Shown in pieces: positions 672 to 35,531 of a stretch of DNA of 35,531 nucleotides. The notes beneath the pieces were generated by a model. That model was not told the DNA's origin and did not search any database. It saw only the letters and a list, made by a program, of their open reading frames with translations. Source of the DNA: a virus; the IMG/VR virus record IMGVR_UViG_3300017698_000052, positions 1 through 35,531 of that record; one strand, 5' to 3'. The translations under genes were made by a program, and so were the position numbers. The stretch's first letter is position 1; the number at the start of each line of letters is the position of its first letter.

Positions 672-794
672 GGTGGGGTCTCCTTCTGGTGTTCCAGCGT
701 ACCAAACAGGCCGCGAGTCACACAGCACCAATCAAAAAAATAGAGATCGGCCACCGCTGGCCCGTTTCGCCACCCTTATCGGGCGGGGGGCGGC

Positions 795-2959: not shown

Positions 2960-3282
2960 TGGTCAACCAAGAAACACGCACATACCCGGTCGAGCTCGAG
3001 GGCGATTCCTACCAGGTGCCGTGCCGGGGCTACGCGTTCGCCGCGATCCAGGTCATACCGGACGGCTACTCGAGCACAACGGGCGTGATCGAACTCAAGC
3101 GGAGCCTGAGCGACGACCCGGCCGACGCGGTGTCGTTCTCATCGGCAAAGACACCGAACATGACCAGCAAGGCGATCCTCGACACGATCGACGTGCGCGA
3201 CGTCGATTACCTGTACATCCACAACACCACCGCAGACTCGGGCAAGCGTGCCCGCGTGCTGATCCATCTCTCGGAGGAATGA
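2959..3282 (+). CDS. Small tail-module protein (107 aa)
   Basis: GTG at 2959 overlaps the upstream TAG (TAGTG), with a GGGGG RBS upstream. High wobble GC. Lies in the downstream part of ORF-track entry 2614..3282. Confidence 0.45.
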   Translation: MVNQETRTYPVELEGDSYQVPCRGYAFAAIQVIPDGYSSTTGVIELKRSLSDDPADAVSFSSAKTPNMTSKAILDTIDVRDVDYLYIHNTTADSGKRARVLIHLSEE

Positions 3283-3285
3283 CCC

Positions 3286-4119
3286 ATGGCGACCCTGAAC
3301 ACAAACGCGACATCGTTTGCCGCAGCAAATTGGTCCGACGCGACCGGGTTCGCCGATTCGGCGGTCCTGGTCGCCGCGGACGGCAACCAGCCCGTCGTGA
3401 CCGCGCTGGACTACTCAACGCTCACCGAGGGCATCGAGGAGTACACGCAGGCCGAGTCGTTCCGGGCCAACGTGGGCACGCCCGCCAACCCGCTGAAGTG
3501 CGACGCGGACGCGTCGGCGGACGCCCGCATCCAGAATTACAGCCCGTACGCCCTGCACTATGAGGCGGACGGCGACGAGAACCTGTGCAACGTGCTCCGG
3601 CAGGGCGGCACGGGCAGCACCTACGTCTACGGCGGCACCGTCACGCAGACCTACCAGACGCGGGGCTATCTGTACGTGAACGCGTCAACGGTCGTGACAG
3701 ACCTCGACATCGCGGCGGGCCGCTCGGTCATCGAGAACAACGCGACCGGGATCAACTCGGTCGTGTACCACAGCGGCCAGCACGTGCTCAAGCGGGACTG
3801 CGACGCGGACGGCACGATCACGGTCAAGAAGGGTGCAACGGTCACGATCGACATTCCCGACGCATCGCCCACGGTGGAACTGCTCGTCGAACTGGGCGGC
3901 AAGGTCATCGTCAAGGAGTGCGCCACGATCGCCAAGTGCGACAATAACGGCACGCTCAACATCGACGGGGCCAAGGGTGGCTGCACGCTCGGTGCGACCC
4001 GGCACAACCAGGGGCCGTACGCGGTGCTGGTGCGCGGCACACAGAACACGATCACCGAGCCGACGTTCCCGCACGGCATCCGCGACGCGGGCAGCCCGCA
4101 GGGTGGTCCGGCGATCTGA
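3286..4119 (+). CDS. Tail fibre/spike-like protein (beta-helix-like repeats)
   Basis: GGAGGA RBS. The 277-aa product is rich in short G/N/T/V beta-strand repeats (GGTVTQTY, GATVTIDIP, GGKVIVKE, GTLNIDGAKGG). Confidence 0.45.
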   Translation: MATLNTNATSFAAANWSDATGFADSAVLVAADGNQPVVTALDYSTLTEGIEEYTQAESFRANVGTPANPLKCDADASADARIQNYSPYALHYEADGDENLCNVLRQGGTGSTYVYGGTVTQTYQTRGYLYVNASTVVTDLDIAAGRSVIENNATGINSVVYHSGQHVLKRDCDADGTITVKKGATVTIDIPDASPTVELLVELGGKVIVKECATIAKCDNNGTLNIDGAKGGCTLGATRHNQGPYAVLVRGTQNTITEPTFPHGIRDAGSPQGGPAI

Positions 4120-4691
4120 TGGCCGACACCGTGACCCATGCCCGCATCCTCGACACCCGCACGGCGGGCGAGGTTGTGCTGTGGGAAATCGCGGTGGCGT
4201 TGCCGGGCGGCGGCGAGTACCGCCCCGGCTGGATCGAGGGCGGTTCGTACGTCATGGCGGGCGGTCTGATCGTGGGGCTGCTGGTGGCGGGCGAGCGGGG
4301 GCGGGAGTTCAAGCCGATGGGCTCGGGCGGCGGGGGGTCGTCGTTCGGCCAGTTCCACGCCCGGATTCTGAGTGCGAACCCCGTCTCGTTCGGGCGGTGG
4401 GAATACGACTGGGAGCAGGTCACCCCGTCGGCGACCCAGCCCGGCGAGTTCGATCTGAAAGAGGGCGGCAAGAACAGCGCGATGGACGGGCGGGCACGCA
4501 ACGGCGTTGAGACGCCCAACCTGCCCGCGTCGGTCCTCGGGTCGGGCGTGGACGCGGCGACGCTCCCCAGCGGCTTCCAGCCCGTCCCTGTGGGCGACGG
4601 GGCCGTTGTGCGGCTGTCCGGCCCGTACGGGTCGGGCTCGGGCGCGTGGTGGCTGTTCACGGTCAGCACGCACGTTGACGGGAGCTGCTGA
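4119..4691 (+). CDS. Tail-module protein (190 aa)
   Basis: Start overlaps the upstream stop (TGATG). Coding-like wobble GC; position in the tail module. Confidence 0.4.
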   Translation: MADTVTHARILDTRTAGEVVLWEIAVALPGGGEYRPGWIEGGSYVMAGGLIVGLLVAGERGREFKPMGSGGGGSSFGQFHARILSANPVSFGRWEYDWEQVTPSATQPGEFDLKEGGKNSAMDGRARNGVETPNLPASVLGSGVDAATLPSGFQPVPVGDGAVVRLSGPYGSGSGAWWLFTVSTHVDGSC

Positions 4692-6229
4692 TGAGCACGC
4701 ACCGTGCCTGCTGCTGCGGACCGGGCAACGAGTGCGGCATGCTGGGCACCGCCCACGTCTGCGAACTCGGCATCGATGTGCCCGTCTACGCCTTCCTGCC
4801 CGTGCAGGGGATCACCTACACGACATCGGCGCATGAGGCGGCGAGCGGGCCGGGTGTGCTGGACTATGACGTTACGACGACCACCAGCGGGGCCTACGGG
4901 TTCGCGGTCCAGTACGATCGGACGGCGACCGACGCGGAGGTCATCGCGGAGTTCGGGCTGTCCGGCTACGACAACGTGCTGATTTCGGGTCCGAGCGGGC
5001 AGCCCACACCGGGGCTCACGGCCCGCGTTTTCCACGCATGGACCGAGAATCTCAACTCATCGAACGGCTCCAGCCTGGCTCCGGGCATCGGGTTCCACGG
5101 CGTCAACGGCAACCAGTGGAGCATCGTCGGTGTTCCGGGCGGGCCCGAGTGCGGGCAGACGGTGATGGCACAGGCCTCATCGGTGCTGACCAGGAACAGG
5201 AGCTCGGCTGGCACGCCGACGAGCTACTCGGGCATGTACACAGAGCGGGTGGTTTTCGATGGCGACTTCGACGACCGCTTGTTCGAGGAGACCAGATCGG
5301 CGACCGTCTCGCCCGGCTTGTCGATCCAGTCGCTGCCCTCGTATTGGGAAGGCCCGCCCGACTTCAACCTGTGCTCGCTGGCGTTCCCGTTCTACACCTA
5401 CCAGGACATGACCCCGGACACCGAGGACGGGATGCTGCTGTTGAAGTGCGACGGCACCCCCGGCGCGATCTTCTACCGCAAGACCGCGTTCGATGCCCTC
5501 GGGCTGGCGTCGGGCGATGTGGTCAAGATCGCGGGCGTGTGCTGGCGGCAGGACGGCGTGACCAACGGCAATTCGGCGGAGGTCCGCTCGCCCGCGATCG
5601 AATCGGTGCACCCGACCTGCTCGGACTGCAGCTCCGATGCGGTGCCGTGCTGGATACTCGAGCGGTGCGATGGGCAGGGCCAGCCGGTCAACGTCGATGC
5701 GGCGGAACTGGCGGCGGTTCCGGGCTCGGGCAACGTGTTCAGGATCGCGGGCGTGTGCTGGACCAAGACGGGCGAGGTGGTCGCGGTGCCTGCGGCTATC
5801 CGGGCTGCGGACATCGAGGCCCGGTTCGTCGGGTGTACCGCGTGCGATGATCGCCCGCTGAACGTCCGCTTCGACCCCTGCACGGGTTTCGGCACCGCCC
5901 CGTCGTTCTACGTCGATCAGGAAGAGTACTTCGCCCTTGCGGACCCGCCCGCCGTGGTCGGCGGTGTGATCGGTGGCGGGCAGCGCCGGTGCTACCACTA
6001 CGCGGCCCGTGACCTTGAGGTCGGCGACCCGATCGCTATCGAGGCGTTCGAGCTGCTGTCGTCGTTCCCCAACTGTCAGACATGCTACGGACCGATCGAG
6101 CCGCCCGGCCCGGAGATCCGCCCCAGCGTTGCCGTGACCGCACCCCCGAGCCAAGACCACCGGAACGCCGCGATCGAGGCGGCGATGAGCCAAGACCCAC
6201 TGAGACGCTGCAAAGGCTGCGGCCAATAG
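4691..6229 (+). CDS. Cys-rich tail fibre / receptor-binding candidate with three tandem four-Cys modules
   Basis: 512 aa. N-terminus is MSTHRACCCGPGNEC. The C-terminal half has three modules of about 70 aa (C..IAGVCW..CxxC; see findings). It is the last large gene of the tail module. Confidence 0.5.
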   Translation: MSTHRACCCGPGNECGMLGTAHVCELGIDVPVYAFLPVQGITYTTSAHEAASGPGVLDYDVTTTTSGAYGFAVQYDRTATDAEVIAEFGLSGYDNVLISGPSGQPTPGLTARVFHAWTENLNSSNGSSLAPGIGFHGVNGNQWSIVGVPGGPECGQTVMAQASSVLTRNRSSAGTPTSYSGMYTERVVFDGDFDDRLFEETRSATVSPGLSIQSLPSYWEGPPDFNLCSLAFPFYTYQDMTPDTEDGMLLLKCDGTPGAIFYRKTAFDALGLASGDVVKIAGVCWRQDGVTNGNSAEVRSPAIESVHPTCSDCSSDAVPCWILERCDGQGQPVNVDAAELAAVPGSGNVFRIAGVCWTKTGEVVAVPAAIRAADIEARFVGCTACDDRPLNVRFDPCTGFGTAPSFYVDQEEYFALADPPAVVGGVIGGGQRRCYHYAARDLEVGDPIAIEAFELLSSFPNCQTCYGPIEPPGPEIRPSVAVTAPPSQDHRNAAIEAAMSQDPLRRCKGCGQ

Positions 6230-6239
6230 GAGACCCACC

Positions 6240-6512
6240 ATGCTCGAAAAGTACATGCACACCGCACGCGCGAAGCTCCGAGAGGGCATCAAGGCCAGCC
6301 TCACCGAGGGCAGCACCCACATCGAAGACAGCAAGCCGCTGCCGTTCGGGGCGACCGAGGCCCAGGAACTGTGCGCCATCGCGGCGGAGATCGTCTATCT
6401 CGCCGACGTGATCGAGTGCCTGAAGGAGACCGACGAAAAGGAGCGGACGCGGTGCCTGCTCATCGCGGCGGACACCTACTGCACGAACTTTGACGCCTGT
6501 TTCCCGGAGTGA
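6240..6512 (+). CDS. Hypothetical protein (90 aa), accessory slot
   Basis: AGGAGA RBS 7 nt upstream of the ATG. No motif recognised. Confidence 0.4.
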   Translation: MLEKYMHTARAKLREGIKASLTEGSTHIEDSKPLPFGATEAQELCAIAAEIVYLADVIECLKETDEKERTRCLLIAADTYCTNFDACFPE

Positions 6513-6515
6513 ATC

Positions 6516-6947
6516 ATGCCCAAGGATGACGCGAAAAAGGCGGTTGTGGCGGCGGCGGCGAGTAACCCGCTGGTGGCCGGTGTCGTCCTCATGCTGGGGC
6601 TCGGTGCGATGGTCGAACTCCGCATCGCACCCGCATACGACGAGGCGAACGAGGCGATGGTCACCAGCGCCGCCCGTGTCGAGGTCGCGGTGGAGCACCA
6701 CGCCAAGGTTCTCGAGGAGCAGGGGCAGACGATCGAAAAGATTCTGGGTGAGGTCAGCGTGATCGTTGCGAGGATCAACACGCTGGGGGAGTCGCTGAGC
6801 AACCTGCGCGGCTACATGCAGGCGAGCCTTGAAAACCTGCGGAACGAGCTGCGTCGGTACGTCGATGAGCGGGTCGATGAGCGGGACGAGACGCTGCGGA
6901 AGGAACTGATGGAGCGGATGGAGCGGCTGATTGATCGGGTTGAGTGA
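6516..6947 (+). CDS. N-terminally membrane-anchored coiled-coil protein (Rz/i-spanin-like topology)
   Basis: GGAGTGA RBS. One TM segment (NPLVAGVVLMLGLGAMV) followed by a heptad-rich E/R/L C-terminal region; 143 aa. Confidence 0.45.
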   Translation: MPKDDAKKAVVAAAASNPLVAGVVLMLGLGAMVELRIAPAYDEANEAMVTSAARVEVAVEHHAKVLEEQGQTIEKILGEVSVIVARINTLGESLSNLRGYMQASLENLRNELRRYVDERVDERDETLRKELMERMERLIDRVE

Positions 6948-7289: not shown

Positions 7290-7375
7290 CACGATCATAA
7301 CTAGATTCGGCGGGTGTCGGATCTGTGGAATGTGAAGATATTACATAGATTGTGGTAGCCCAACTTGGCCCCGTG

Positions 7376-7384
7376 TGGTACGTT
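7376..7384 (+). promoter_or_regulatory. Extended -10-like element TGGTACGTT upstream of int
   Basis: One of four intergenic TGGTACnnn occurrences (see findings). Confidence 0.3.
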
Positions 7385-7514
7385 CTGCCCGATGCCGACA
7401 GCACACCGGGAAGTGGGCGTGGTCTTGCCTGCCCAACAGTGGGGGTGGTCGTATCTCGTTGCCCCTCAACCTTTTATCCTTGATCCGCACCCCGCGATCG
7501 GTGATGATGGCGGC

Positions 7515-9086
7515 ATGGAAACGGGGACGCGAGCCAATGTGTGCGGCTGGCGGGAATGGCTCTCGCTGTATTGCGAAGAGCGAAGGCAATCGGGGAGCGC
7601 CGCCTACGCCGACCAACATGAGCACCGCGTGCGGTTCTTCATGCGGCACACCGGGCTGACCGACTACTCGGACATCACCCCCCGGCACACAAATCTGTGG
7701 AAAAACTACCTGCTGGAGCATGGGCAACCCCGTCCGACAGATGGATACCAGAACCCCAACGGCTGCGGCGCGTCGGCGCTCAAGACCCACGTTCACGCGA
7801 TGAAAGCCTATTGGGACTGGCTGGTGCGGATCGAGGCGGTGGTCCCGAGGCCCAACCCGTTCCAGGGCATGAGGCTGCCCCCCAAGATCCACACCGATCA
7901 GCGGGCGTTGACGACGGCGGAAATCCTGCGGCTGATCGAGTACGCGGAGGCGGACGAATACGGGCCGCAGCGGGAGAGCGAGCCCGATGGCACCGTGCGG
8001 TATCGGTCCAGCCTGTACCGGGTGCTGTCTGTGAGCGGTTATCGGATCAACGAGGCGCGGCGTCTGCGGTGGCGGGATCTGGAATTGCACCGCGACCCGG
8101 CCCGGATCGTGCTGCCAGCGGCGAAGGGCAAGGCGGCGAAGGGTCGGGTCAGCCTGCTGCCCGAGAGCGTGCGGGAGTCGTTGCTGGTGCTGGCGAAAGT
8201 ATCGGGGTCGCAACCCGTTGTAGACAAAGGGGTAACGGGCAGTATCGGGGGGTATCGGGCGATACCCGATATGGACAACGGGACGCAACCGGGCGCAACC
8301 GGGCGCAACGGGGGCAAGCGTGATCCGCGTTTGATCCGCAACGGGTCCGCATCTGATCCGCAACCCGACCCCGCCGACCTCGTTTGGCCCTGGCTCAGCG
8401 GGCGACCGAACACCGTGCTCGGTGCCCTGCGGCGGGACTGCAAGCGGTGCGGGGTAGACCTCGAGGATGACCGTGGCCGCAAGGTCGGGTGGCACGCCTT
8501 CCGCCGTGCGGTGGCGTCCGAGCTGGCCCGGTCGGGGGTCAACCCGAAGATCGCCCAACGGATTTTGGGGCACTCGCAGGTGTCCACGACGCTCAAGCAC
8601 TACACCGACATCGACGACGGCCAGATTTTTGCAGCGGCTAAGTCTTTGTCGGGTGGGCAGTTGTCAGCGGGTCGTTCGGGCGACACAGGAAAAAATCGGG
8701 AAAGGCGCTCAAGGGGGTTGCATGGTGATGACGATGATGTACCATGTACACGTCACGGCCATAACAATCACGATGAAAACCGCGATTCGCTGGCGACCCA
8801 ACAGGCTGTGACAAGCAAGGGACGCCGCGATCGCATGGACGCGGGGGGCCGGGCAACGGCTTCCGCGACCGTCGGGAATGAGCGACACAGGTTCGAGTCC
8901 TGTATCGCCCATTCCAACACCGACGCACGCCTTGTTCGGGCGGCGTTGGAACTGCTTTCGGCTGCTGGCGTTGATTCGCTGACGGCGGCTGAGATGCTTG
9001 AGACGGTCGCAGAAATCGTTGCCCGGTCCCCCGAGAAGGGGACTAAAGATGAGCGACGAAGCGACGACGAACACCACAACGAATGA
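7515..9086 (+). CDS. int: Tyrosine recombinase (phage integrase) with a repeat-encoded insertion and a roughly 150-aa C-terminal extension crossing the putative attP core
   Basis: Catalytic signature: INEARRLRWRDL (Arg), WHAFRRAV (HxxR), LGHSQVSTTLKHY (His...Tyr). A core-binding domain lies upstream (WREWLSLY...). Start chosen at METGT (7515) because wobble GC drops upstream; alternatives are ATG 7392 and TTG 7365. No in-frame stop occurs until 9086. Confidence 0.85.
   Translation: METGTRANVCGWREWLSLYCEERRQSGSAAYADQHEHRVRFFMRHTGLTDYSDITPRHTNLWKNYLLEHGQPRPTDGYQNPNGCGASALKTHVHAMKAYWDWLVRIEAVVPRPNPFQGMRLPPKIHTDQRALTTAEILRLIEYAEADEYGPQRESEPDGTVRYRSSLYRVLSVSGYRINEARRLRWRDLELHRDPARIVLPAAKGKAAKGRVSLLPESVRESLLVLAKVSGSQPVVDKGVTGSIGGYRAIPDMDNGTQPGATGRNGGKRDPRLIRNGSASDPQPDPADLVWPWLSGRPNTVLGALRRDCKRCGVDLEDDRGRKVGWHAFRRAVASELARSGVNPKIAQRILGHSQVSTTLKHYTDIDDGQIFAAAKSLSGGQLSAGRSGDTGKNRERRSRGLHGDDDDVPCTRHGHNNHDENRDSLATQQAVTSKGRRDRMDAGGRATASATVGNERHRFESCIAHSNTDARLVRAALELLSAAGVDSLTAAEMLETVAEIVARSPEKGTKDERRSDDEHHNE
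8887..8911 (+). other. tRNA 3'-end-like fragment (T-arm, 3' acceptor strand, discriminator); candidate attP core
   Basis: ACAGG-TTCGAGT-CCTGT is a canonical T stem-loop (T54 T55 C56 R57 A58, G53:C61), followed by ATCGCCC-A. No matching 5' acceptor strand (GGGCGAT) or D-arm lies upstream, so it is not a complete tRNA. Confidence 0.55.
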
Positions 9087-22527: not shown

Positions 22528-24639
22528 ATGCCCGTACTCATCATCGCGCTGCTGCTCCTGCCGTGGCCCTGGGGATCAGCAAGCAACGGGCTCATCTTCC
22601 CGTGGGGGTTCGACATGGCAGGTGAGGCAGACTTCACAATCGCGTCTACCGGCTGGGCCACCAGCGGCACCGCCGACGCATCCAGCACGGGCTTCACCAC
22701 GGTCGGGGCCGACTGGACCCACTCCACCTACGGCGGGGTCAACTCGATCGAGCATGCGGGCGGGTCACTCTCGGTCGTGAACCCGATCGCAGAGGCGACC
22801 ATCACCGCGTTCTTCAACGAGGCCGCGACCGACTCGGTGTACGACTTCGAGTTCGGGTTCTACCTGCGAGGCAAGGGGGCGACCGCTTCCGACTTCAACT
22901 CGTTCCTGTTCTGGCTGGGCGGCACGCACACGGTGTCGCTGAGGCACCTCGGCACCGATGGGCACCTGAACGCGGACGGCTCGCCGAACGCTGTCCGCCT
23001 GTTCGGCAACACGGGCACGCACCGCAACGGCTCGGGCTACATCTTCATGCCCACCGACACGATCATGCGTGGCCGATACCGCGTCACCGAGACGAGCGGG
23101 ACGTACACCGTCGAGTTCTTCGTGAACGATGAACTCATCACCAAGGCCACCGGGCTCGCTCTGTCTGCCGCCAACGCTGGCCGCATGATGGAGTTCCGAT
23201 CACCCGCCACCGGCACCGGGGATGACGACCTGACCTTCGGGCTCACCGGCCCGTTCGTCGGCGAGGAAGACCCCGGCACCACGATCCGCCCGACGACCAG
23301 CCTACAGACCGACACCCGCGTGCGAGCCTTCCCCGTGCCCATGCTCACCGGCTCCGGCTGGTGGACCGATTCGGGCACCGTGACCTACGGGCGTGACATC
23401 GACGAGGGCACCGTCCCGAACATCAATCACCCGATGGTGTTGCAGGCGACCGGCTCGTATCTCGAAACCGCAGCCGAGATCGGCACCCCCATCGTGGCCA
23501 ACAACGGCGCGGGCACGCTGTGGGTCGCCAAGGTCGAACTGTCCGCAGACACGGCTGAGTGGACGCTGAAGATCATGGAGGCTGGCAGCACGGACGCCTA
23601 CATCTCGATCCTGTTCGACTCCGACAACGTGGTCTACATGGGCGAGGGTGCCGAAACGATCACCTACTCGGCTGTCCAGGACTCGGACGGCGGCAACATG
23701 CCGTGGGAATCGGGCGAGAACTACGAGGTTGCCATTCAGTACGCACCCGGCGTGAAGCCGACGCTGGTGCTCCACAAACGATCCGCCACGTTCACCGCAG
23801 AACAGACCGTGTGGGCCGGGCGGCTCACCGCGTGTGCGACCACGGGTGTTCCCACCTCGCTCGGCAAGGTCCGCTCGACGGCGGCGGGCACGGGCACCGT
23901 GGACTTCTCGGGCATCGAACTCAACGCCACCCACTGGGCAGCCCTGTCGTCATCGTGGACACACTCCACCGGATCGGGCTACGGCGGGTCGAGCCATGTT
24001 GTCAGCCGTGCTCTATTCGACGGCATGGCCATCGGGTGGGGCGGCGAGATCCCCGGACTGGAACGATCCCGCGACCACTACCACGATTATTGTGCGTGGG
24101 GCCGATCGGGTGCCGACTTCGCGGACTGGGAGACGAACAACCCGTCGTGGGCTGACCTGCTCCCGTTCCTGCCCGCGACCCGCCTCGTCGGGGTGGACAC
24201 GATGGTCAACCACCTTGCCGCCCAGCGAACGAACGGCACCGCAGCGATCAACACCGCACGCGATCAGGTCGAGGCCCAGGTCCAACGCATCATCGACGCG
24301 GCGAAGACGAGCGACGTTCGGGTCGATGGCATGGACCAGTTCCCGATGCCGGTCGGCGAGGTTGGCGGGCTGAACTACCCGCAGGACGTGGCCGACGCCA
24401 TGACCGCCCTGAACGCCACGCTGCTCGCCAACTTCACGGCGGCGGGCAGGCCCGACCTGTTCACATGGGCACCCATCATCACGGGCAAGGTCGAGTCAGA
24501 CTTCTACACGGCGGCAACCGACGACACCCACTATGACGACGACGGGGACATGCTGGCGTACCGCCTGAGCGAGAGCGAGAAGGCGAGCGTGGGCACGGCG
24601 AGCACAACCCGCAGCCGCGACCGGGGGAGGGGCAGGTGA
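22528..24639 (+). CDS. Secreted 703-aa protein with C-terminal SGNH/GDSL-like hydrolase region
   Basis: N-terminal signal-like MPVLIIALLLLPWPWGSASNG. C-terminal blocks in SGNH order: ALSSSW, AWGRSGADF, VDTMVNH, DDTHYDDDG (DxxH). Confidence 0.5.
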   Translation: MPVLIIALLLLPWPWGSASNGLIFPWGFDMAGEADFTIASTGWATSGTADASSTGFTTVGADWTHSTYGGVNSIEHAGGSLSVVNPIAEATITAFFNEAATDSVYDFEFGFYLRGKGATASDFNSFLFWLGGTHTVSLRHLGTDGHLNADGSPNAVRLFGNTGTHRNGSGYIFMPTDTIMRGRYRVTETSGTYTVEFFVNDELITKATGLALSAANAGRMMEFRSPATGTGDDDLTFGLTGPFVGEEDPGTTIRPTTSLQTDTRVRAFPVPMLTGSGWWTDSGTVTYGRDIDEGTVPNINHPMVLQATGSYLETAAEIGTPIVANNGAGTLWVAKVELSADTAEWTLKIMEAGSTDAYISILFDSDNVVYMGEGAETITYSAVQDSDGGNMPWESGENYEVAIQYAPGVKPTLVLHKRSATFTAEQTVWAGRLTACATTGVPTSLGKVRSTAAGTGTVDFSGIELNATHWAALSSSWTHSTGSGYGGSSHVVSRALFDGMAIGWGGEIPGLERSRDHYHDYCAWGRSGADFADWETNNPSWADLLPFLPATRLVGVDTMVNHLAAQRTNGTAAINTARDQVEAQVQRIIDAAKTSDVRVDGMDQFPMPVGEVGGLNYPQDVADAMTALNATLLANFTAAGRPDLFTWAPIITGKVESDFYTAATDDTHYDDDGDMLAYRLSESEKASVGTASTTRSRDRGRGR

Positions 24640-25082
24640 TGGCGAGGCCACGCATATACACCCCCGAACTGGCGGCGAACATCTGCGAGCGAATCGCGGC
24701 AGGGGAATCGCTGCGGGAGATATGCGAGCCCGACACAATGCCCAGCCGTGAGACGGTCAGAAGGTGGATTCTGCACAACGACGGGGCGATTGAGGGGGAA
24801 ACGGACAGCGGGTTTAGTGGCCAATACGCACGCGCGAAGATGGCGTCGGCCGAGGCGTTCGAGGATCGCATCATGGCGAACTGCGACGCGCTCGAATCCG
24901 ACGCCCTGACGATGGCGGCTGCGACGGGGCGGAAGTCTGCGGCTGAGCTGCTGTTCAAGCTCGCCGCGATCCGGGCACCAAAGACGCACGGCGACCTGCA
25001 GAAACACGAGCACACCGGCTCGGGCGGCTCGCCGCTGAGGGTGGTTATCGAGATGCCGGAAGGCACAGAAGGGAACGAATGA
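24639..25082 (+). CDS. terS: Terminase small subunit
   Basis: N-terminal HTH pattern RIYTPELAANICERIAAGESLREIC...PSRETVRRWI, then YARAK...AFEDRI. Lies in the packaging operon upstream of terL. ATG at 24639 (TGATG overlap); alternative GTG at 24636. Confidence 0.65.
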   Translation: MARPRIYTPELAANICERIAAGESLREICEPDTMPSRETVRRWILHNDGAIEGETDSGFSGQYARAKMASAEAFEDRIMANCDALESDALTMAAATGRKSAAELLFKLAAIRAPKTHGDLQKHEHTGSGGSPLRVVIEMPEGTEGNE

Positions 25083-25615
25083 CCTGTATCGCTGGGCTCA
25101 TCCATAACGGCAGGGCGTACGTTGGCGCTGACTCACAGACCACGTGGGGGTACGTCAAGCACGACCACACCACCAAGGTGTTCCGGGTCGGCGACGCGAT
25201 CATGGCCGGGTGCGGGCGTGCGGCGCTGAGTGCCGCGTTTCAGCACCGCCTTGCGGCACCCGATGTGCCCGAGGGCAAAGAGGACCACTGGTTGTTGGTC
25301 ACGCTCCCGGACGCGATGCGGGAGTGCGTGAAGTCGATCGGGCTGTGGAAGGATGGCGACCTTTCGGGCGGCGGCGCGTACATCGTTGGGTGGCGTGGAC
25401 GATTGGTGGCGATTGATTGCCACCTTGCCGCGTACCCGGTGCCCGCGTTCACATCGTTCGGCTCGGGCGGCGAGGTCGCTATCGGTGCCCTCGAAGTGCT
25501 GGGCGATAAGGGCAAGCCCCGCGAACGCCTGAACCGTGCGATCCAGGCCGCGTGTCGGTGGTCGGTGGGCGTGGGTGGGGAAGTGCAGATCATTGCGGAG
25601 GGTGACACCGACTGA
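25079..25615 (+). CDS. HslV / proteasome beta-subunit-like Ntn hydrolase (178 aa)
   Basis: M-T-C-IAGL start places Thr at position 2, as in Ntn nucleophiles. NGRAYVGADSQTTWG...TTKVFRV...AGCGRAA parallels HslV [23 protein letters not shown]...KKVRRL...AGFAGG. SFGSGGEVAIGALEVL parallels AIGSGGPYAQAAARAL. Confidence 0.65.
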   Translation: MTCIAGLIHNGRAYVGADSQTTWGYVKHDHTTKVFRVGDAIMAGCGRAALSAAFQHRLAAPDVPEGKEDHWLLVTLPDAMRECVKSIGLWKDGDLSGGGAYIVGWRGRLVAIDCHLAAYPVPAFTSFGSGGEVAIGALEVLGDKGKPRERLNRAIQAACRWSVGVGGEVQIIAEGDTD

Positions 25616-26910
25616 TGGTCGCAGAGGTCCGCCACAAACTCCTGCCCAAGCAGGCCGAGCTGGTGCGGAGCACCGAGCGGCACCGGGTCTACTCCGGGGC
25701 TGTCGGTGCGGGCAAGTCGCGGGCGTTGTGCGTCGCGGCCATCATGCACGTCGCGGGCCGTCCCGAGGCCCGGTTCGGGCTGTTCCGCAAGACGCTGGTG
25801 GGGCTCAAGAAGTCCACGCTCAAGACGCTGATCGAGGGCGACGGCAAGGCCCCGCCCGTCCTGCCGCCCGGCTCCTACAAGCACAACAAGAACGACGCGG
25901 AGATCAAGGTCAACGGGGGCGGCTCGATCCTGTACTCGGGCGTTGAGACACCCGAGGCGGTGCGGTCGATGAACCTGAGCCAGGCGGGCATCGACGAGGT
26001 GACCGAGCTCCAGTTCGACGACTACAACGCGGTGGACGACCGGGTGCGGCTCGAGGTCGGCGTCCCGCTCGCCATCCTGAGCGTGACGAACCCCGGCACC
26101 CCGTCGCACTGGCTCGCCAAGATGATGGGCCTGAGCCCGGACAAGCAGACGCCCGATCCCGACTGCCGCCTGATCCTGACGCGGACGAGCGACAACACGT
26201 ACCTGCCCGCGTCCTACCTGCAGTCGTTCGCACGGCACGAGGGCACGGTGTACTACCGCCGCATGTTCCTGGGCGAGTGGTGCGGCTCCGAGGGCATGGT
26301 CTATGACCGCTTCCTGCGGGACACGCACGTGCGCCCGACGGTGGGCACGCCCAAGTACCGGATCTTGGGTGTGGACGACGGGTACACCGACCCGTTCACG
26401 GTGCTGGATTTCCATGTCGATTCGGACAGCCGCGTCCACACCGCCCGCGAGGTGTACGAGACCGGGCTCATCATGTCCGAGAAGGTCAAGCGGGTTCAGG
26501 CGTGGTCGGACGACGACACGCTGGTCATCGTGGATTCGGCGGCCCCGGACCTGATCGAATCGCTGCGGCGTGCGGGCGTGAACGCGACCCCCGCCGACAA
26601 GGGGCCGGGCTCGATCAACTTCGGGATCAACCTGGTGCAGACGCGGCTCGCGACCGACGACCGGGGCGTCCCGTCGCTGACCGTCGATCCGCAGTGCGTG
26701 AACACGATCCGCGAATACGAGACGTACGAGTGGGACACGCGGCACGGCGTGCTGAAGGACAAGCCCATCGACCGGGACAACCACGCGATGGACCCGACGC
26801 GGTACGTCGTCAAGCACCTCGACTCCGGGCACGCCCCGATGCCGTCTGCGGTTGGGTACGGCGACGAGTCGGCGGTGGTGGACGACGAGCATATGTGGAG
26901 CAACGCATGA
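25615..26910 (+). CDS. terL: Terminase large subunit
   Basis: Walker A YSGAVGAGKS, Walker B/coupling AGIDEVTE, C-terminal nuclease-like RILGVDDGYTDP...VIVDSA...DNHAMDP. Confidence 0.85.
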   Translation: MVAEVRHKLLPKQAELVRSTERHRVYSGAVGAGKSRALCVAAIMHVAGRPEARFGLFRKTLVGLKKSTLKTLIEGDGKAPPVLPPGSYKHNKNDAEIKVNGGGSILYSGVETPEAVRSMNLSQAGIDEVTELQFDDYNAVDDRVRLEVGVPLAILSVTNPGTPSHWLAKMMGLSPDKQTPDPDCRLILTRTSDNTYLPASYLQSFARHEGTVYYRRMFLGEWCGSEGMVYDRFLRDTHVRPTVGTPKYRILGVDDGYTDPFTVLDFHVDSDSRVHTAREVYETGLIMSEKVKRVQAWSDDDTLVIVDSAAPDLIESLRRAGVNATPADKGPGSINFGINLVQTRLATDDRGVPSLTVDPQCVNTIREYETYEWDTRHGVLKDKPIDRDNHAMDPTRYVVKHLDSGHAPMPSAVGYGDESAVVDDEHMWSNA

Positions 26911-26935
26911 GCGAATACACACGAAAGGACGAAGC

Positions 26936-27148
26936 ATGAGCGATCCAATGACAAACGCCAAGCTGGACCGGATCGAGAAGGCGATCGGGAACCTCGTTGA
27001 GATGCAGCTTCGGTGGAAGAAGGAAACCGACGAGAGGTGGGAGAAGGCGGATGCCCAAAACGCTCAATACAAGGAAGACCGCGAGAAGTGGAAGCGGGAC
27101 CACGAAGAGTGGGAAAAAGAGGCGGAAGCGGCAAGGGCTGGCGGATGA
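26936..27148 (+). CDS. Small charged coiled-coil protein (70 aa)
   Basis: ATG at 26936 with AAAGGA upstream. W/K/E-rich product (RWKKETDERWEKAD...EKWKRDHEEWEKE). Confidence 0.4.
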   Translation: MSDPMTNAKLDRIEKAIGNLVEMQLRWKKETDERWEKADAQNAQYKEDREKWKRDHEEWEKEAEAARAGG

Positions 27149-27208
27149 CGATCGGCCCACGGAGCAACGCGTGAACCACAACCCCGCCCAACGGGCGATC
27201 GAGGCACA

Positions 27209-29887
27209 ATGGGCTTCCTGACCAAACGACGGCCCGAGACCAAGGCGGTGCCGAGCACCGCGCCGTACATGGACGCGCTCGTCACACTCCGTGACCGGAG
27301 CATGTCCAAGTTCAGCCGAAACGTCATGGCAATCGCCCTGATGAAAGAGGCGCGGGGGTACACGTTCAATTGCGCCCACATCCGGGCGATGGCGGCTGCA
27401 CAACAGACGCTGCAACTGTACCGATCGGCACCAGCGACAAGCCGGTCCGCAAAGTCCGTGAAGGATGCGAGGCGGCGAGGCGTAACGCTTGAGGTCCGCA
27501 CCCCTGTGCGGGCGTCGAAAAAGCACAGGATGCTCCGTGGCGACTACGGGACGAACGCACAGAAGGCGGTCGCGTGGCAGGGCGTGGGCGGCGAGGTGTC
27601 CGAGGTCACCAACCACGATGTGCTCAACCTGCTGGCACGCCCCAACCCGCTCCAGACGGGCGTATCCGCCGCCTACCAGACGTTCCTGATGGCGGGGCTG
27701 ACCGGCGAGATGTTCCATGTCGCCGTGGGCAAGGGCACGCCGCTGCAACTGTGGCCGATGCTGCCGCAGTACACGAACCCGGTCCCGAGCCCCGATGATG
27801 TTGTTGGCAAATACATCTATGGCCGGGACCGATCCAACCTGTTCGAGGTCGAGGCCGAGCACGTCCTGCACTACAAGAACGCGGACCACCCGGATGACCC
27901 GTACCACGGACTCGGCCCGCTGCACCCGCAGGGGTGCTACCAGGCGGCTCGGATCGTCAACAGCAACGAGGACTTCGATTACGAGCTGATCGAGAACGGC
28001 AACATGCCGATGGCGTTCATCTCGCTCGACCCCGTGATCTACGGCGACACGATGATCGAGAAGTTCAAGAAGTACCTCGACCAGACGACGCGTGGCGTTG
28101 CCGGCAAGGTCAAGGCTGTTGTGGGCGCGGGCATGTCGGTCACCACCGCGATGCCCAACGCCAAAGACCTGCAGAGCATCGAGAAACTCGCCATCCACAT
28201 GGCGACGATCCGCAACGCGTACGGCGTGTCGGAATCCATGCTCGACATGAACGACGCCAACCTCGCATCGGCGACGGTCGGCAGCGACCAGTTCCTGAGC
28301 CTGACGCTGTGGCCGATCCTGTGCCAGCACGCGGACTTCCTGACCGAGCGGCTGCTGCCGATGTTCGGGCTGGAGCCGGGCGAGTACTGGTTCGCGTACG
28401 AGAACCCGCTGCTGGCCGACCTGCAGAAAGAGGCGGCCATCGCGGAGATCGACCTGCGGAGCGGGGTGCGGAGCATCAACGAGGTTCGTGAGGAGCGGAT
28501 GCTGGACCCGGTGCCTGACGGCGACGTGTACCGGATCAACGGGGTTCCGCTGGCGGAGGCTGGTGCACAGCCGTTCGGATCGTTCGGCCCGTTCGGATCG
28601 TTCCCGAGCCAGCCCGTTCCGACAGACAAGCCGGGAGAGGAGGCATCCGTGCCCGCACCACAGAAGATCGAAGAGACGGCGCTGAACGGTGCCCAGATCG
28701 CCCAGCTCGTTGGGCTTGCCGAGAAGGTGGGGCTTGGCCTCATCACCCGGGACGGGGCGCTTGCGATCGCACAGGCATCGTTCCCCGGCACGCCTCCCGA
28801 GAAGCTGACGGCGATCTTCTCGAAGCTGGTCGAGGGCGACCCGGTCGCGGAAGAAGAAACGGATACCGTGCCCGTGGTGGGTACGCTTGACGCGAAGGCG
28901 GTGGATGATGGAAACGATGGTGACGGTGGTACAGGTGGAGACGTGGGGTGCGTGGATGATGAAGCAGGAGCCGATATCGTTCTGGGAGGGGGAGCCGGTG
29001 TACAAGTATCCGAATTGCCCGTTTGCAAACTCTCTGGTCGCCATGCCCGACCCGACCCCTTCGACCTACGCGACTGCGGTTGCAGCATCCGAACCAAAGA
29101 CGACGACGACGACATCGAAGCCGTAGTCGTCCCGTCGGAGTTCATCAGCCCAGAGGACGCGGCCAAGCAGACGGCGGCGCTGCGGGCCGGTGTGCGGTCG
29201 CTGCAGGGCACGATCGCGGACTTCATCCTCGATGCCCAAGAGGACGCGGCGGGGCAGATCCGTCGCGGTGTGGCGATCGACCTGGCATCGCTCGAGGATG
29301 GGCTGGCGACGGCGCTTGAGCCCGCGTTCGCTGAGATGTACACGGCGGGGTTTGACCTTGCCGGGCTGGAGTTCGACGACGCGGGGACGTTCGAGGCCCC
29401 GAACCCCGAGGCGCTCGCGGAGGCCCAGAGCAGCCTTGTGCGGCAGTTGAGCACGGATATCAGCGACCACACCGCACAGGCCATCGAGGCCCGCGTGCAG
29501 GCCGGTATCGGCGAGGGGCAGAGCGCCGCCCAGATGGCCGACGCAATCGAGGCCGACACCGAGTTCGCCAGTTACCGGGCCGAGCGGATCGCCCGCACCG
29601 AGGTGTCGGACGCGACGAACGCGGGCAAGGTGGCCCGGTACAAAGAGGCCGGTGTGACCACGAAGTATTGGGTGAACGCACCCGGCGCGAGCGCCGTGCA
29701 CCAGGCCATCGCCGCGATGCACTCGGACGGCGTGCCGATCGACGAACCGTTCATCACGGCGGGCACCACGATCACTGCGGGCGGGAAGTCCGAGAATTAC
29801 ACCCGCGACATCTACCACCCGCCCGCGCGACCGAACTGCCGGTGCTCGGTGCAGGCGCGGAAGGCGAACGCCACGGAGGGCGCATGA
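27209..29887 (+). CDS. Portal protein (HK97 family) fused to a Mu F / SPP1 gp7-like minor head domain
   Basis: Portal region NLLARPNP...HYKNADHPDDPYHGLGPL...NGNMPMAFISL...ATIRNAYGV...INEVREE. C-terminal MuF region YRAERIARTEVSDATNAG...YWVNAPGA...HPPARPNCRCSV. Confidence 0.85.
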   Translation: MGFLTKRRPETKAVPSTAPYMDALVTLRDRSMSKFSRNVMAIALMKEARGYTFNCAHIRAMAAAQQTLQLYRSAPATSRSAKSVKDARRRGVTLEVRTPVRASKKHRMLRGDYGTNAQKAVAWQGVGGEVSEVTNHDVLNLLARPNPLQTGVSAAYQTFLMAGLTGEMFHVAVGKGTPLQLWPMLPQYTNPVPSPDDVVGKYIYGRDRSNLFEVEAEHVLHYKNADHPDDPYHGLGPLHPQGCYQAARIVNSNEDFDYELIENGNMPMAFISLDPVIYGDTMIEKFKKYLDQTTRGVAGKVKAVVGAGMSVTTAMPNAKDLQSIEKLAIHMATIRNAYGVSESMLDMNDANLASATVGSDQFLSLTLWPILCQHADFLTERLLPMFGLEPGEYWFAYENPLLADLQKEAAIAEIDLRSGVRSINEVREERMLDPVPDGDVYRINGVPLAEAGAQPFGSFGPFGSFPSQPVPTDKPGEEASVPAPQKIEETALNGAQIAQLVGLAEKVGLGLITRDGALAIAQASFPGTPPEKLTAIFSKLVEGDPVAEEETDTVPVVGTLDAKAVDDGNDGDGGTGGDVGCVDDEAGADIVLGGGAGVQVSELPVCKLSGRHARPDPFDLRDCGCSIRTKDDDDDIEAVVVPSEFISPEDAAKQTAALRAGVRSLQGTIADFILDAQEDAAGQIRRGVAIDLASLEDGLATALEPAFAEMYTAGFDLAGLEFDDAGTFEAPNPEALAEAQSSLVRQLSTDISDHTAQAIEARVQAGIGEGQSAAQMADAIEADTEFASYRAERIARTEVSDATNAGKVARYKEAGVTTKYWVNAPGASAVHQAIAAMHSDGVPIDEPFITAGTTITAGGKSENYTRDIYHPPARPNCRCSVQARKANATEGA

Positions 29888-30525
29888 ACGAGGTCAAAGA
29901 GACAATCATCGAGCGGATCAGAAAGCGGCACCCGGCGTTTGCAAAGAGCAAGTCCGTCGGCGTGTCCTTGCCGGGTGCCGTGCCAACCGCGATCAAGACG
30001 ACAAAGGACAACAAGCGGAATGTGCTTGTGACGGCCAACACAACCGGGGTTGATTGTGATAGCGAGGTCGTGCTCCCTTACGGTGCTCAACTTGGGTACT
30101 TTGGTCTGAACCGAAGGGTCTTTGTTGACCACGACTATAAGTTCTGGGATATGTGCGGCGGCGTGCGGACCGGGTGGCCCACGATGGTCAACGGGGCATG
30201 GGATGTGCTGTTCGCCACGCGACGATCTGCGGTGGGCGATCAGGTGCTCAAGGATGCCGAGGATTTCGGCATCTCGGTCAGCATCGGGTTCGACGCGATC
30301 GACGTGGGGCCGCCAACCCCCGAAGAGGTGGAGAAGTACGGCGGCGGCGAGTCGTTCCGGTCGATCGTTCGCCAATGGGAATGGATCGAGCTGTCGGTGA
30401 CGTATATGCCGTGTCTCGTTCATGCCCGGCAGCCGCACGCGGTGGGGTTTGAGCCTGCGCCGGTGGCGGGTAAAACCGTGACCGTCACCCCGTTTGGAGT
30501 TTCTGTCACACAATCCGTTGCATAG
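29884..30525 (+). CDS. Prohead protease (HK97 / S78 family)
   Basis: ATGA overlap with the portal gene. VFVDHDY (His), ISVSIGF (Ser), WEWIELSVTYMPC. Internal start of ORF-track entry 29668..30525. Confidence 0.75.
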   Translation: MNEVKETIIERIRKRHPAFAKSKSVGVSLPGAVPTAIKTTKDNKRNVLVTANTTGVDCDSEVVLPYGAQLGYFGLNRRVFVDHDYKFWDMCGGVRTGWPTMVNGAWDVLFATRRSAVGDQVLKDAEDFGISVSIGFDAIDVGPPTPEEVEKYGGGESFRSIVRQWEWIELSVTYMPCLVHARQPHAVGFEPAPVAGKTVTVTPFGVSVTQSVA

Positions 30526-30537
30526 GCGGGGATTGTC

Positions 30538-30546
30538 TGGTACGAT
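30538..30546 (+). promoter_or_regulatory. TGGTACGAT, extended -10-like element in the protease-capsid gap
   Basis: One of four intergenic TGGTACnnn occurrences; precedes the structured capsid leader. Confidence 0.35.
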
Positions 30547-30687
30547 ATGAGCGACGGCAGGTGCCGTCGACATCGGGCATTCGCCCAACGATCAACAGCA
30601 ACACCTTGCTGTGAACAGCCATAGGGCCTTCACAGCAACAGCGGAGCCTTGATCGGGAACCATCGTTCTCGATTTGGAGGCTTCGCC

Positions 30688-32217
30688 ATGGTTGCGAAAG
30701 CGCAGTACAAGACGCGGCACGGGCTGATTGCGGATCTCCGCAAGTCCGGTGCGTTCGATGAATCAACGATCAAGAGTCTCGATGCGATGGACGGCGCTGC
30801 CGCCCGTTCGTGGTTCGAGAAGAACACCGAAGTGAAGGGGTACACCGGGGCCGACATCGAGGCCCTGTGGACCAAGAAGGTGACCATCGACATCAGCGCT
30901 GACGGCGGCGAGGATGTGGTGGTCAACGGCGGCGGGGGTGCTGAACCCGAGGCCGTCGAAGAAATCGACGACACCGAGGAAGACGAGGTTGTCGAGAAGC
31001 GCCGCAAGGACATGGCGGCCAAGCGCAAGACCGACCTGAAGGCCGGTGCACGGATCACGGCGGCGGGTGCGCCCGCGATGGGTGGCCGGTTCAGCGGCAC
31101 CAAGGCCGCGTACGAGCGGGCTGTCCGCGAGAAGTCAGGCTGGAAGGGCGGGAGCCGTGCCCCGATCGCAGACCCGGACCTTGCCGAGGCGTACGGCGCG
31201 TGGGGCCGCATGGCCATCATGGGCCACCGGGACTACGAGCAGAAGGCCAACGACCAGTCGATCGTCTCGAACATCAAGGAGCTGAGCAGCAGCGTCAACT
31301 CCCTGGGTGGCGCGACCATCCCGCAGATGTTCGCGGATGAGATGATCGTGAACCGCACGCGGAACAACGCGATCACGCGGGCCGCTGGCGTCACCACGCT
31401 CGAGAGGGGGCAGCTCACCACGCCCCGCCAGATCAGCGACGTGACCGTCTCGGTCATCGGCGAGAACAACGCCGACGCCGACCAGTCGCCCGACCTGTTC
31501 GATGACGTTGAGATCACCGTTCGGGAGGTCCGTGGGCTCGTCAAGATCCCCAACTCCCTGCTCCAAGACTCCGCACTGGAGATCGTGGGCGTGCTCGGCG
31601 ATTCGTTCGATCGTGCCTACGGCAACTTCGAGGATGACAACTACCTGCTCGCGCGTGGCACTGGCCGCTCCAACTCGTTCGAGGGCATCCTCGACAAGAT
31701 CGGGGCGAACAGCACGAACGACGCGGCTCTGTCATCGGGCTGGGGCAACTTTGCCATCAGCGACTTCACGAACCTTCAGGGCAAGCTGTCTGATCGGGCG
31801 TGGGAGTCGGATCGCGTGGGCTACATCTGCTCGCGTCCGTTCTACAACACGAACATGGAGCGGTTCAGCAATTCCGCAGGTGGCAACACCGGCGACATGC
31901 TGAAGGCCGGGTTCCTCGGTGGCTCGTTCCCGAACGACGCCGACGCCATGTGGAACGGCTTCCCCGTCTGGTTCACTTCTCGCATGCCCCGCACCTACTC
32001 GGCTGACCAGAAGTCGGTCCTGTTCGGTGCGTTCGACCTCGCCACCAAGGCGTGTGTGGTCAAGGGGACGGAGCAGATCCAGACCTCTGAGCACTTCGCA
32101 TTCGCAAACAACCAGCTCACGGTCCGCGTCGTTCGCAGGATCGCGTTCAACGCCCACGACGTGAACAACGTCAGCGATCCCGACCTGGGTTCGATGGTCG
32201 TGGCGATGCAGGACTAA
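30688..32217 (+). CDS. Major capsid protein (HK97 fold) with N-terminal delta/scaffold-like domain
   Basis: GGAGG 7 nt upstream of the ATG at 30688. The first ~190 aa are charged and coiled (EEIDDTEEDEVVEKRRKDMAAKRK). The remainder has a Phage_capsid-like pattern (LGGATIPQ...VREVRGLVKIPNSLLQDS...). Confidence 0.85.
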   Translation: MVAKAQYKTRHGLIADLRKSGAFDESTIKSLDAMDGAAARSWFEKNTEVKGYTGADIEALWTKKVTIDISADGGEDVVVNGGGGAEPEAVEEIDDTEEDEVVEKRRKDMAAKRKTDLKAGARITAAGAPAMGGRFSGTKAAYERAVREKSGWKGGSRAPIADPDLAEAYGAWGRMAIMGHRDYEQKANDQSIVSNIKELSSSVNSLGGATIPQMFADEMIVNRTRNNAITRAAGVTTLERGQLTTPRQISDVTVSVIGENNADADQSPDLFDDVEITVREVRGLVKIPNSLLQDSALEIVGVLGDSFDRAYGNFEDDNYLLARGTGRSNSFEGILDKIGANSTNDAALSSGWGNFAISDFTNLQGKLSDRAWESDRVGYICSRPFYNTNMERFSNSAGGNTGDMLKAGFLGGSFPNDADAMWNGFPVWFTSRMPRTYSADQKSVLFGAFDLATKACVVKGTEQIQTSEHFAFANNQLTVRVVRRIAFNAHDVNNVSDPDLGSMVVAMQD

Positions 32218-35010: not shown

Positions 35011-35531
35011 TGGCGACAGTCAACAAGTTCCAGGGCTCGCTCACATCGGCGGGCAGCAACAGCACCGCCGATCTGATCGGCCAGTTGGGCATCTACGCAT
35101 CGTCGATTTCGATCACATCGCCCGAGTCTCCGGGTGTGGTGGATGGTGACACGTTCGATAAGGTCTTGACGGGCCTGTATTCGTGGACGATCACGGCCCC
35201 GTTCCGGTTCCCCGCAACGCCCCAGCACGGCAAGAACCCGAGCGGCACGGATGCCTACATCACGCCCACCGGGTCGTCGCTGTACCTCACCCGCGTCAAG
35301 GGCTTCTCGCTCACCATCTCGACCGGGTACGCGGAGACGACCGACGAGGATTCGGTCGGCGGCGCTGAGTACATGTGGGCGAACCTCATCACGCTCGCGG
35401 GCGAGTACCAGGCGAACGCGGACAGTGCTACAGCACTCAAGCTGCCGGGCTCGGATGCGGGCGTTTCGTTCAAGATCGGCGACGAATCGACGAACAACGA
35501 CATCATCACCTGCCCGATCGTGATTACGGGC
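35010..35531 (+). CDS. Major tail (tube) protein, 5' part of a gene that wraps the contig junction and continues at 100..390
   Basis: ATG at 35010 overlaps the upstream stop (TAATG). The frame is open to the window end (174 codons) and is in phase with ORF 88..390 once the 99-bp repeat is collapsed, giving about 270 aa. It sits directly after the tail terminator and before the tape measure. Confidence 0.6.
   Translation, partial: MATVNKFQGSLTSAGSNSTADLIGQLGIYASSISITSPESPGVVDGDTFDKVLTGLYSWTITAPFRFPATPQHGKNPSGTDAYITPTGSSLYLTRVKGFSLTISTGYAETTDEDSVGGAEYMWANLITLAGEYQANADSATALKLPGSDAGVSFKIGDESTNNDIITCPIVITG
35433..35531. repeat. Second copy of the 99-bp terminal direct repeat
   Basis: Identical to 1..99. 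Confidence 0.95.

Follow-up and report, generated by a model that had tools for sequence, protein, structure and literature searches.

The open reading frame at positions 25079..25615 of the virus record IMGVR_UViG_3300017698_000052 (IMG/VR), the whole of which (35,531 nucleotides, hereafter the window) was analysed, is a real gene (+ strand, as are all the window genes described here); as judged from sequence profiles and a predicted structure, its 178-residue product, hereafter the peptidase, is an N-terminal nucleophile (Ntn) hydrolase of the proteasome family, i.e. a BPH/HslV-like threonine peptidase, and it is probably catalytically competent. The gene lies exactly between those for the small (terS) and large (terL) terminase subunits and is fully integrated in the late head/packaging operon. 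On balance we favour the proposal that the peptidase is an optional accessory enzyme, expressed late and acting without a phage ATPase, rather than a core factor in packaging or assembly. The family of phage proteasome homologues is itself already known, having been described in 2021; what is new is the context, i.e. the terS|terL insertion and the movement of the gene between slots inside one head module. There are thousands of phage proteasome homologues, none with an assigned function, and the window locus offers a testable handle on them.

The PHROG 1040 profile ('peptidase HslV family') matches residues 1-172 of the peptidase (E 1.5e-22, 81.5 bits), and the Pfam Proteasome model (PF00227) matches residues 2-46, i.e. 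the N-terminal 45 (E 2.2e-4, 21.4 bits). When the PDB was searched with the single sequence, BPH alone was found (6e-4); with a profile of 91 family members, BPH ranked first (2.7e-16 and 5.8e-15), followed by HslV (9e-14 to 1e-9) and then by 20S proteasome beta subunits. An AlphaFold2 (AF2) model of the monomer, with a predicted local distance difference test score (pLDDT) of 96.4, has an alpha-beta-beta-alpha Ntn sandwich and four helices, H1-H4, at residues 48-57, 68-86, 131-141 and 147-161. The best PDB match to this model found by Foldseek is Thiobacillus BPH (template modelling score, TM, 0.81; E 1.5e-12), after which come HslV (TM 0.71-0.74) and then eukaryotic and archaeal 20S beta subunits (TM ~0.7); there are 1,108 PDB matches at E<=1e-3, the top ones all being BPH, HslV or 20S beta. 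Among viral structures in BFVD, 37 match the peptidase, with TM up to 0.91. A first-pass annotation of the window had proposed an HslV/proteasome-beta-like Ntn hydrolase here, and the modelled fold is indeed of the proteasome-beta/Ntn type; of the 'HslV-like' label, the Ntn/HslV kinship holds, but in sequence profile as well as in structure the peptidase is nearer to BPH.

The product begins M-T-C-I-A-G-L (its translation opens MTCIAGLIHNGRAYVGADSQTTWGY), and since no in-frame start lies further upstream, this M-T N terminus is fixed. Methionine aminopeptidase removes Met ahead of a small residue such as Thr, as in HslV, and Thr2 (codon 25082..25084), which aligns with Thr1 of HslV and BPH, is the predicted nucleophile after Met removal. 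In a set of 91 homologues, gathered with a hidden Markov model (HMM) rather than by N-terminal pattern, this position is Thr in 89 and Ser in two. Asp18 (25130..25132; GAD motif), equivalent to proteasome Asp17, and Lys33 (25175..25177; TTKVF motif), equivalent to Lys33 of the proteasome and HslV, align with the corresponding residues of BPH and HslV, and each is kept in all 91. The predicted oxyanion-hole residue, Gly46 (25214..25216; AGCG motif), aligns with a Gly of the HslV GFAG segment and is Gly in 77/91. A GSG loop, Gly128-Ser129-Gly130 (25460..25468; FGSGG, cf. the HslV motif AIGSGG), was placed by profile alignment; Gly128 is present in 90 and Gly130 in all 91 of the homologues, Ser129 in 58 (with Cys in 22). 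Thus the four motifs that had been read from the sequence as parallels to HslV do align, by profile, with catalytic positions of BPH and HslV, and loss of the N-terminal Thr and of the Lys, which would have told against that reading, is not seen among the homologues. Since ~93% of 154 homologues open [M/L/V]-[T/S], there is evidently no propeptide. Two further residues, Cys3 (84/91) and Arg81 (82/91), are conserved in a family-specific manner.

BPH (PDB 5ovs, 5ovt and 5ovu) is the best match to the peptidase by all three approaches, i.e. single sequence, family profile and structure, and the two are alike in having a compact fold of ~180-200 residues, no propeptide and no partner ATPase; BPH from Cupriavidus, as does the phage family, opens T-C. 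The two share only 19-21% identity, which makes it doubtful that the peptidase belongs to BPH proper. In its cellular setting BPH is encoded in stress-regulated operons, and its tetradecamer has an elongated pore loop and encloses an acidic cavity (PMC5777263); by contrast, the peptidase is phage-encoded and belongs to a late structural operon. HslV (ClpQ) shares the M-T N terminus, and its Asp17, Lys33, oxyanion Gly and GSGG loop align with those of the peptidase, but it has a partner, hslU, none being detected in the window genome, its profile score is below that of BPH, and it has Thr2 where the phage family has Cys3. The 20S beta subunits are similar in fold and catalytic triad; unlike them, the peptidase lacks a propeptide and the C-terminal S12/H5 elements, and there is no alpha subunit.

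Two classes of proteasome-like homologues, AAH and PPH, both radiating from BPH, were described in Caudovirales by Fuchs, Alva and Lupas in 2021 (PMC8665760). AAH is a compact group I homologue, with H1-H4 and without insertions or S12/H5, and is distributed over Alphaproteobacteria, Actinobacteria and many phages; that work gives neither class a function or a head-module context (PMC8665760). At 178 residues and with H2 present at 68-86, the peptidase is not a PPH, which is of ~140 residues and lacks H2. Its architecture and size fit the description of AAH, and its cellular relatives (mostly Azospirillum and other Alphaproteobacteria, plus metagenome-assembled genomes of Dehalococcoidia and Polyangiaceae) have a spread that fits the AAH distribution. 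As gauged from sequence and model, the peptidase thus fits the compact, BPH/HslV-type 'group I' homologues, and is probably nearest to the AAH class.

Homologues are encoded by 23 isolated phages (24-31% identity over the full length), in which they are variously annotated as 'peptidase HslV family', 'Ntn hydrolase', 'proteasome subunit' or 'protease'. The isolate members of PHROG 1040 (Geobacillus virus E3, Moorella phage MTATph1, Vibrio phages and WaterT gp15) are likewise orphans, with no adjacent ATPase annotated, and in none of them is the gene between terS and terL. The first-pass annotation made the gene seem more exotic than it is, the family being catalogued (PHROG 1040, with the 23 isolates and 37 BFVD structures); unusual are its terS|terL slot and the changes of slot inside one head module. 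Family members occur in actinobacteriophages, e.g. Microbacterium phage WaterT gp15 (locus L001, 4574-5104; L numbers are our locus designations) and Gordonia phage Daredevil (BFVD A0A345MIR8), and five Microbacterium phages annotate theirs as 'protease'; Fuchs et al. found no Actinobacteria-specific phages with AAH (PMC8665760).

The window DNA is 65% G+C (GC), and long open reading frames are present by chance on every strand; a spurious high-GC open reading frame is ruled out here by the homologues and by the confident structure model. Full-length homologues exist at 45-53% identity, the closest of these being all metagenomic, and the homologous clusters (at 50% identity) number ~5,884 at E<=1e-3. 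A scan of metagenome contigs gave no further relative of at least 45% identity except that of locus L175, which is on the same contig as L174. Both the GC content of the gene and that of its third codon positions (GC3, 0.80) are like those of its neighbours, and recent foreign acquisition was rejected on these grounds. A search for distant similarity at the DNA level with positions 24000-31000 gave no matches to isolated phages; no isolate closely related to the window phage has been sequenced.

The late block runs in the order terS, peptidase, terL, a small K/E-rich open reading frame, a portal-MuF fusion, a 213-residue open reading frame and an HK97-type major capsid protein (MCP). The peptidase ATG (25079-25081) shares bases with the terS stop TGA (25080-25082; ATGA), and its own stop TGA (25613-25615) shares a base with the terL ATG (25615-25617; TGATG); the reading frame, its N terminus and both overlaps are all as first described. 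Motif reading alone provides two putative Shine-Dalgarno-like sites, GAAGGGA at 25068..25074, 4 nt 5' of the peptidase ATG, and GGAGGG at 25597..25602, within the 3' end of the peptidase gene and 12 nt 5' of the terL ATG. The proposed translational coupling rests on real overlaps, but because overlapping junctions are the rule throughout this operon, from 22.5 to 30.5 kb (GTGA at 24636, ATGA, TGATG, and ATGA at 29884), it is not peculiar to the peptidase gene. No terminator-like site was found on the + strand from ~21.9 to 30.1 kb.

Of the flanking genes, terS (24636..25082, 148 residues) matches Pfam PF20901 Sf6_terminase (3.3e-23) and PHROG 1482 (1.4e-22), and terL (25615..26910, 431 residues) matches Terminase_3 (4.3e-14), Terminase_3C (1.5e-6) and PHROG 2 (9e-36). 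An identical direct repeat of 99 nt is present at both ends of the window (1-99 = 35433-35531), which signals a circular assembly and hence a complete genome of ~35,432 bp. All the genes that could be recognised are on the + strand. The window is a complete temperate phage genome of ~35.4 kb, with an integrase at 7365-9086; no tRNA was found in it. PHROG and Pfam scans of the larger open reading frames of this complete genome detected no HslU-like or other AAA+ unfoldase, so that the peptidase is an orphan, as had been suggested.

The position of the gene in related phages is informative. In loci L007 and L168 the peptidase homologue lies between terL and the next gene, the L007 TerL being 39% identical to that of the window and the L007 terS|terL junction being intact. 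In L174 the homologue is inserted, with overlapping junctions, between the portal-MuF fusion and a homologue of the 213-residue open reading frame, and in L169-L172 it comes after the portal-MuF fusion, the 213-residue homologue and small open reading frames, and before the MCP (33% identical to the window MCP). In L004 it is followed by T4-type RNA ligase 1 (Rnl1) and PNKP, ~4 kb 5' of an S78-like protein and MCP. The gene thus occupies four different slots within one type of head module; recurrence between the terminase genes, for which a survey had been advised, was not observed among the closest homologues, their slots being terL|portal, portal-MuF|protease and pre-MCP. The L004 segment (248-6544), in which the homologue is 45% identical, encodes an RF-1-domain protein, two DUF8296 proteins, the Ntn hydrolase, Rnl1, PNKP and a nucleoside deoxyribosyltransferase, a neighbourhood of the tRNA-repair or translation-rescue type.

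The same head module also occurs without the gene. Four IMG/VR phages (L257-L260) have TerL proteins 58-65% identical to that of the window and the same order of terS, terL, portal-MuF, protease and MCP, yet the family HMM found no peptidase homologue in them (E<=10, in stretches of 6-13 kb; positive controls 6e-54 and 2e-23), and, with nothing in between, their terS stop and terL start share bases (ATGA). Because relatives with the same module are without the gene and have terS and terL directly coupled, the peptidase gene is an accessory insertion. In L258 (7271-8518) a DpnA/CcrM-like DNA methyltransferase (PDB 5hek, E 6e-17) occupies the terL|portal slot, and the head-module junctions in this phage group are accessory-gene slots. 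There is thus a natural experiment in which one head module is found with the gene in several slots and also without it; the pattern of presence and absence argues for an optional late factor and not for a part of the packaging machine, and small, tractable genomes for its study have been identified.

It is because phages with the same head machinery are without the gene that an optional late factor is ranked here above a packaging or assembly component. According to this proposal, host methionine aminopeptidase would remove Met1 to expose Thr as the nucleophile. Beta-type proteasome-family subunits with H1-H4 assemble into rings with the Thr1 sites facing inward, and by analogy with the BPH 14-mer and the HslV 12-mer the subunits of the peptidase may form a closed double ring. 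Late in infection, and with no unfoldase supplied by the phage, such a ring would cleave peptides or unfolded polypeptides; BPH forms its rings without a known unfoldase (PMC5777263). The gene may provide an optional fitness or host-interaction factor that rides on late expression, the candidate substrates being, in order of preference, a host or defence protein, peptides for recycling (e.g. scaffold or delta-domain fragments) and head proteins undergoing non-essential trimming. Processing of the portal-MuF fusion or of other essential virion proteins had been among the roles first envisaged; as an obligatory role it is unlikely, the closest phages with the same module being without the gene.

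Several observations weigh against this proposal, or against the assignment on which it builds. The Pfam Proteasome score of 21.4 is just under the gathering cut-off of 22.4, none of the NCBIfam HslV models matches the peptidase, and the sole NCBIfam match is to an archaeal proteasome beta model (E 0.021, 14 bits, vs a cut-off of 224); the Pfam near miss is a matter of divergence, and both structure and family profile are unambiguous. The BPH mechanism was itself deduced from epoxomicin binding and not from substrate turnover (PMC5777263), and a literature search for functional work on phage proteasome homologues gave nothing other than PMC8665760. The absence from L257-L260 covers stretches of 6-13 kb of those genomes. 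Then there is the wider family, as sampled in 80 IMG/VR loci that were picked via an N-terminal pattern (the N terminus there being no evidence): a head gene lies within 500 nt of the peptidase homologue in ~18 of the 80, and terL lies within 500 nt in 10 of the 15 loci that have it within 4 kb, so that adjacency to terL, portal, MuF and protease-MCP genes is far commoner than the word 'incidental' would suggest. These counts are lower bounds, from lineages that are not independent and without a proper null model. Finally, P0015 (see below) represents a lineage with the Ntn domain joined to a protein at the prohead-protease/scaffold position, which makes a link to the head conceivable.

The immediate neighbours in the 80 loci are otherwise diverse. 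With a limited panel of head proteins, a head gene was found within 4 kb in 30 of them, and on the smaller contigs the gene often adjoins TerL (of three unrelated families, Terminase_3, TerL_ATPase and GpA), portal, MuF or S78-MCP fusions; metagenomes add further examples next to head genes. In large phages the context differs, being replication- or repair-linked, and the order HD-domain protein|Ntn|NAD-dependent DNA ligase is seen 8 to 9 times. This triplet is present in L013, L020, L022, L023, L025, L045, L079 and L080 (contigs of 11-480 kb, mostly 62-480 kb), the HD-domain gene overlapping that for the Ntn hydrolase (ATGA) and the ligase gene lying ~120 nt 3'. In isolated large phages the gene is among small early or auxiliary genes, and in Microbacterium phages it is 1.7 kb 5' of the terminase.

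P0015 (552 residues; L255, 2163-3821) joins an Ntn domain, with the N-terminal Thr kept, to a conserved module of ~330 residues, which belongs to a family of at least 222 members without Pfam annotation and is encoded 3' of TerL, between a portal-sized protein (640-750 residues) and an MCP-sized one (~480 residues). In P0159 the shared module is 88% identical to that of P0015, but a 2H phosphoesterase (LigT) domain takes the place of the Ntn domain. The module may be a prohead protease or a scaffold with a swappable enzyme 'cargo', a label that comes from position and short motifs; its comparison with S78 proteases by hhalign was not significant, and a profile search of the PDB was empty; the module and its two neighbours found nothing among isolated phages, nor did the neighbours in the PDB. 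Other members of the module family have Cys-rich, PF11160 or PF20223 N-terminal domains, or none (P0163 is at L256, 6001-7329), and in the module core D-R, H, S-H-G and N-x-F-E are invariant, with a coiled coil at the C terminus. The P0015/P0163 lineage has sugar epimerase, glycosyltransferase and nucleotidyltransferase genes 3' of the putative capsid gene (L255, 5261-8099; L256, 8903-13329), a possible sign that a structural module includes glycosylation functions.

Given these contexts, one alternative, which is unlikely but deserves to be weighed seriously, is that the peptidase is linked to head assembly, acting on the portal-MuF linker, on delta-domain or scaffold fragments or on the terminase, or being recruited into proheads, and would so improve head maturation, though it would not be strictly essential. 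Such a role would account for the closest clade, in which five of six independent arrangements, in four slots, are inside the terS-to-MCP block, and would sit well with a wider family that adjoins three unrelated terminase types, portal, MuF and S78-MCP fusions, and with the position of the P0015 fusion, its Thr free, between portal-sized and MCP-sized proteins. It is harder to reconcile with phages that have the same head module and no such gene, with the separate S78-like candidate already in the canonical slot (see below), with the large phages that keep the gene among replication and repair genes and with the use of such junction slots by an unrelated DNA methyltransferase; moreover, the protease or scaffold nature of the P0015 module is without statistical support.

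The last-named methyltransferase, of an anti-restriction type and in an equivalent slot of a relative, may instead point to a late counter-defence or host-takeover protease, whose target for destruction would be a protein or peptide of the host immune or stress response, and whose fused forms might travel with the capsid; to this possibility we give comparably limited credence. The presence/absence polymorphism and changes of slot are as seen with morons and anti-defence genes, the L004 gene is directly 5' of the Rnl1 and PNKP tRNA-repair pair and near an RF-1-domain gene, and the Ntn domain of P0015 is swapped for LigT in P0159. By contrast, PADLOC models gave no match to the peptidase or to nine unannotated open reading frames (E<=0.01), and no literature linking the phage proteasome-homologue family to defence was found. 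A closed-ring peptidase without an unfoldase is also ill suited to folded proteins, and the timing is late for such a function unless the protein is packaged, for which the 178-residue product has no evident capsid-targeting extension. A head-associated or defence-directed function, if true, would give proteasome-type peptidases their first role in a bacterial virus.

According to a more speculative proposal, less probable than either of these two, the peptidase may belong to a mobile pool of 'late-operon cargo', along with DNA methyltransferases and RNA-repair/2H-phosphoesterase enzymes, that inserts at head-module junctions and of which at least one lineage has a member joined to a protein targeted to the prohead; as a virion-associated or head-coupled effector, it would then be either a packaged counter-defence/host-takeover protease or a second, non-canonical head-maturation peptidase.

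HslV depends on HslU for activity, and HslV is the second-best match to the peptidase by structure and by profile; it might thus be envisaged that the peptidase is a replacement core that docks onto a host AAA+ partner (HslU/ClpY-like or other) and so redirects ATP-dependent degradation. With no phage ATPase detected, that partner would have to be host-encoded. We consider this improbable, in that the peptidase is nearer to BPH, for which no partner unfoldase is known (PMC5777263), and is not matched by the NCBIfam HslV models. A non-proteolytic function, e.g. as a connectase-like ligase/transpeptidase or a small-molecule amidase, is more improbable still. The proteasome-like family does include connectase, a protein ligase, and the nearly invariant, family-specific Cys3 and Arg81 could be taken to suggest a distinct chemistry; however, the model has all of H1-H4, which are used in ring contacts, and none of the connectase-type insertions (criteria of PMC8665760), and the best matches are ring-forming peptidases.

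That the peptidase is the phage's own prohead maturation protease, as could be imagined from the failure of every profile library to recognise the product of 29884..30525 and from the long N-terminal extension of the MCP, which presumably needs removal, can be rejected, since that 213-residue product aligns to an S78 domain with its His and Ser motifs in register and its gene is conserved in every syntenic relative, whether or not the Ntn gene is present.

The 213-residue open reading frame is at the canonical position between portal and MCP genes and is the candidate prohead protease. It gave no matches in Pfam, PHROGs, NCBIfam or PDB sequence searches, and its AF2 model, built from an alignment of three sequences, has a pLDDT of 37 and is unusable for fold searches. 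An hhalign comparison with the Pfam-verified S78 domain of L017 gave E 3.8e-4, with the DH (His), VSIGF (Ser) and ELS..P (ELSVT..P) motifs in register; a second comparison was not significant. The open reading frame is conserved in the syntenic relatives L170, L174, L257, L259 and L260. The first-pass annotation had called it a conventional S78 protease; the weak alignment and the motifs suggest that it is probably of the S78 type, but of a divergent subfamily that the libraries do not recognise, such that 'conventional' was an overstatement.

The portal-MuF fusion (27209..29887, 892 residues) matches Phage_portal at residues 129-429 (1.7e-33) and Phage_Mu_F at residues 758-881 (7.9e-12); the linker between them (residues ~450-750) is long, acidic and Gly-rich, and the same fusion is present in L170, L174, L031, L257 and L259. 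The HK97-type MCP (30649..32217) has an N-terminal extension of ~200 residues ahead of its Phage_capsid match (1.3e-24, residues 220-503).

Directly 5' of terS, which it overlaps (GTGA), and heading the late operon is an open reading frame of 703 residues (22528-24639) with a hydrophobic N terminus, which gave no matches in Pfam, PHROGs, NCBIfam or PADLOC. Five successive open reading frames at 795-6229 (374, 347, 277, 190 and 512 residues) had no matches in PHROGs, Pfam or PADLOC; presumably they encode tail or lysis functions of a kind not yet described, and a gene of tape-measure size is not evident in the window genome. The window also has a recombination/replication block, encoding an exonuclease, a Sak4-like protein, a single-stranded-DNA-binding protein, a helicase, a primase-polymerase, a PD-(D/E)XK protein and a DNA methyltransferase.

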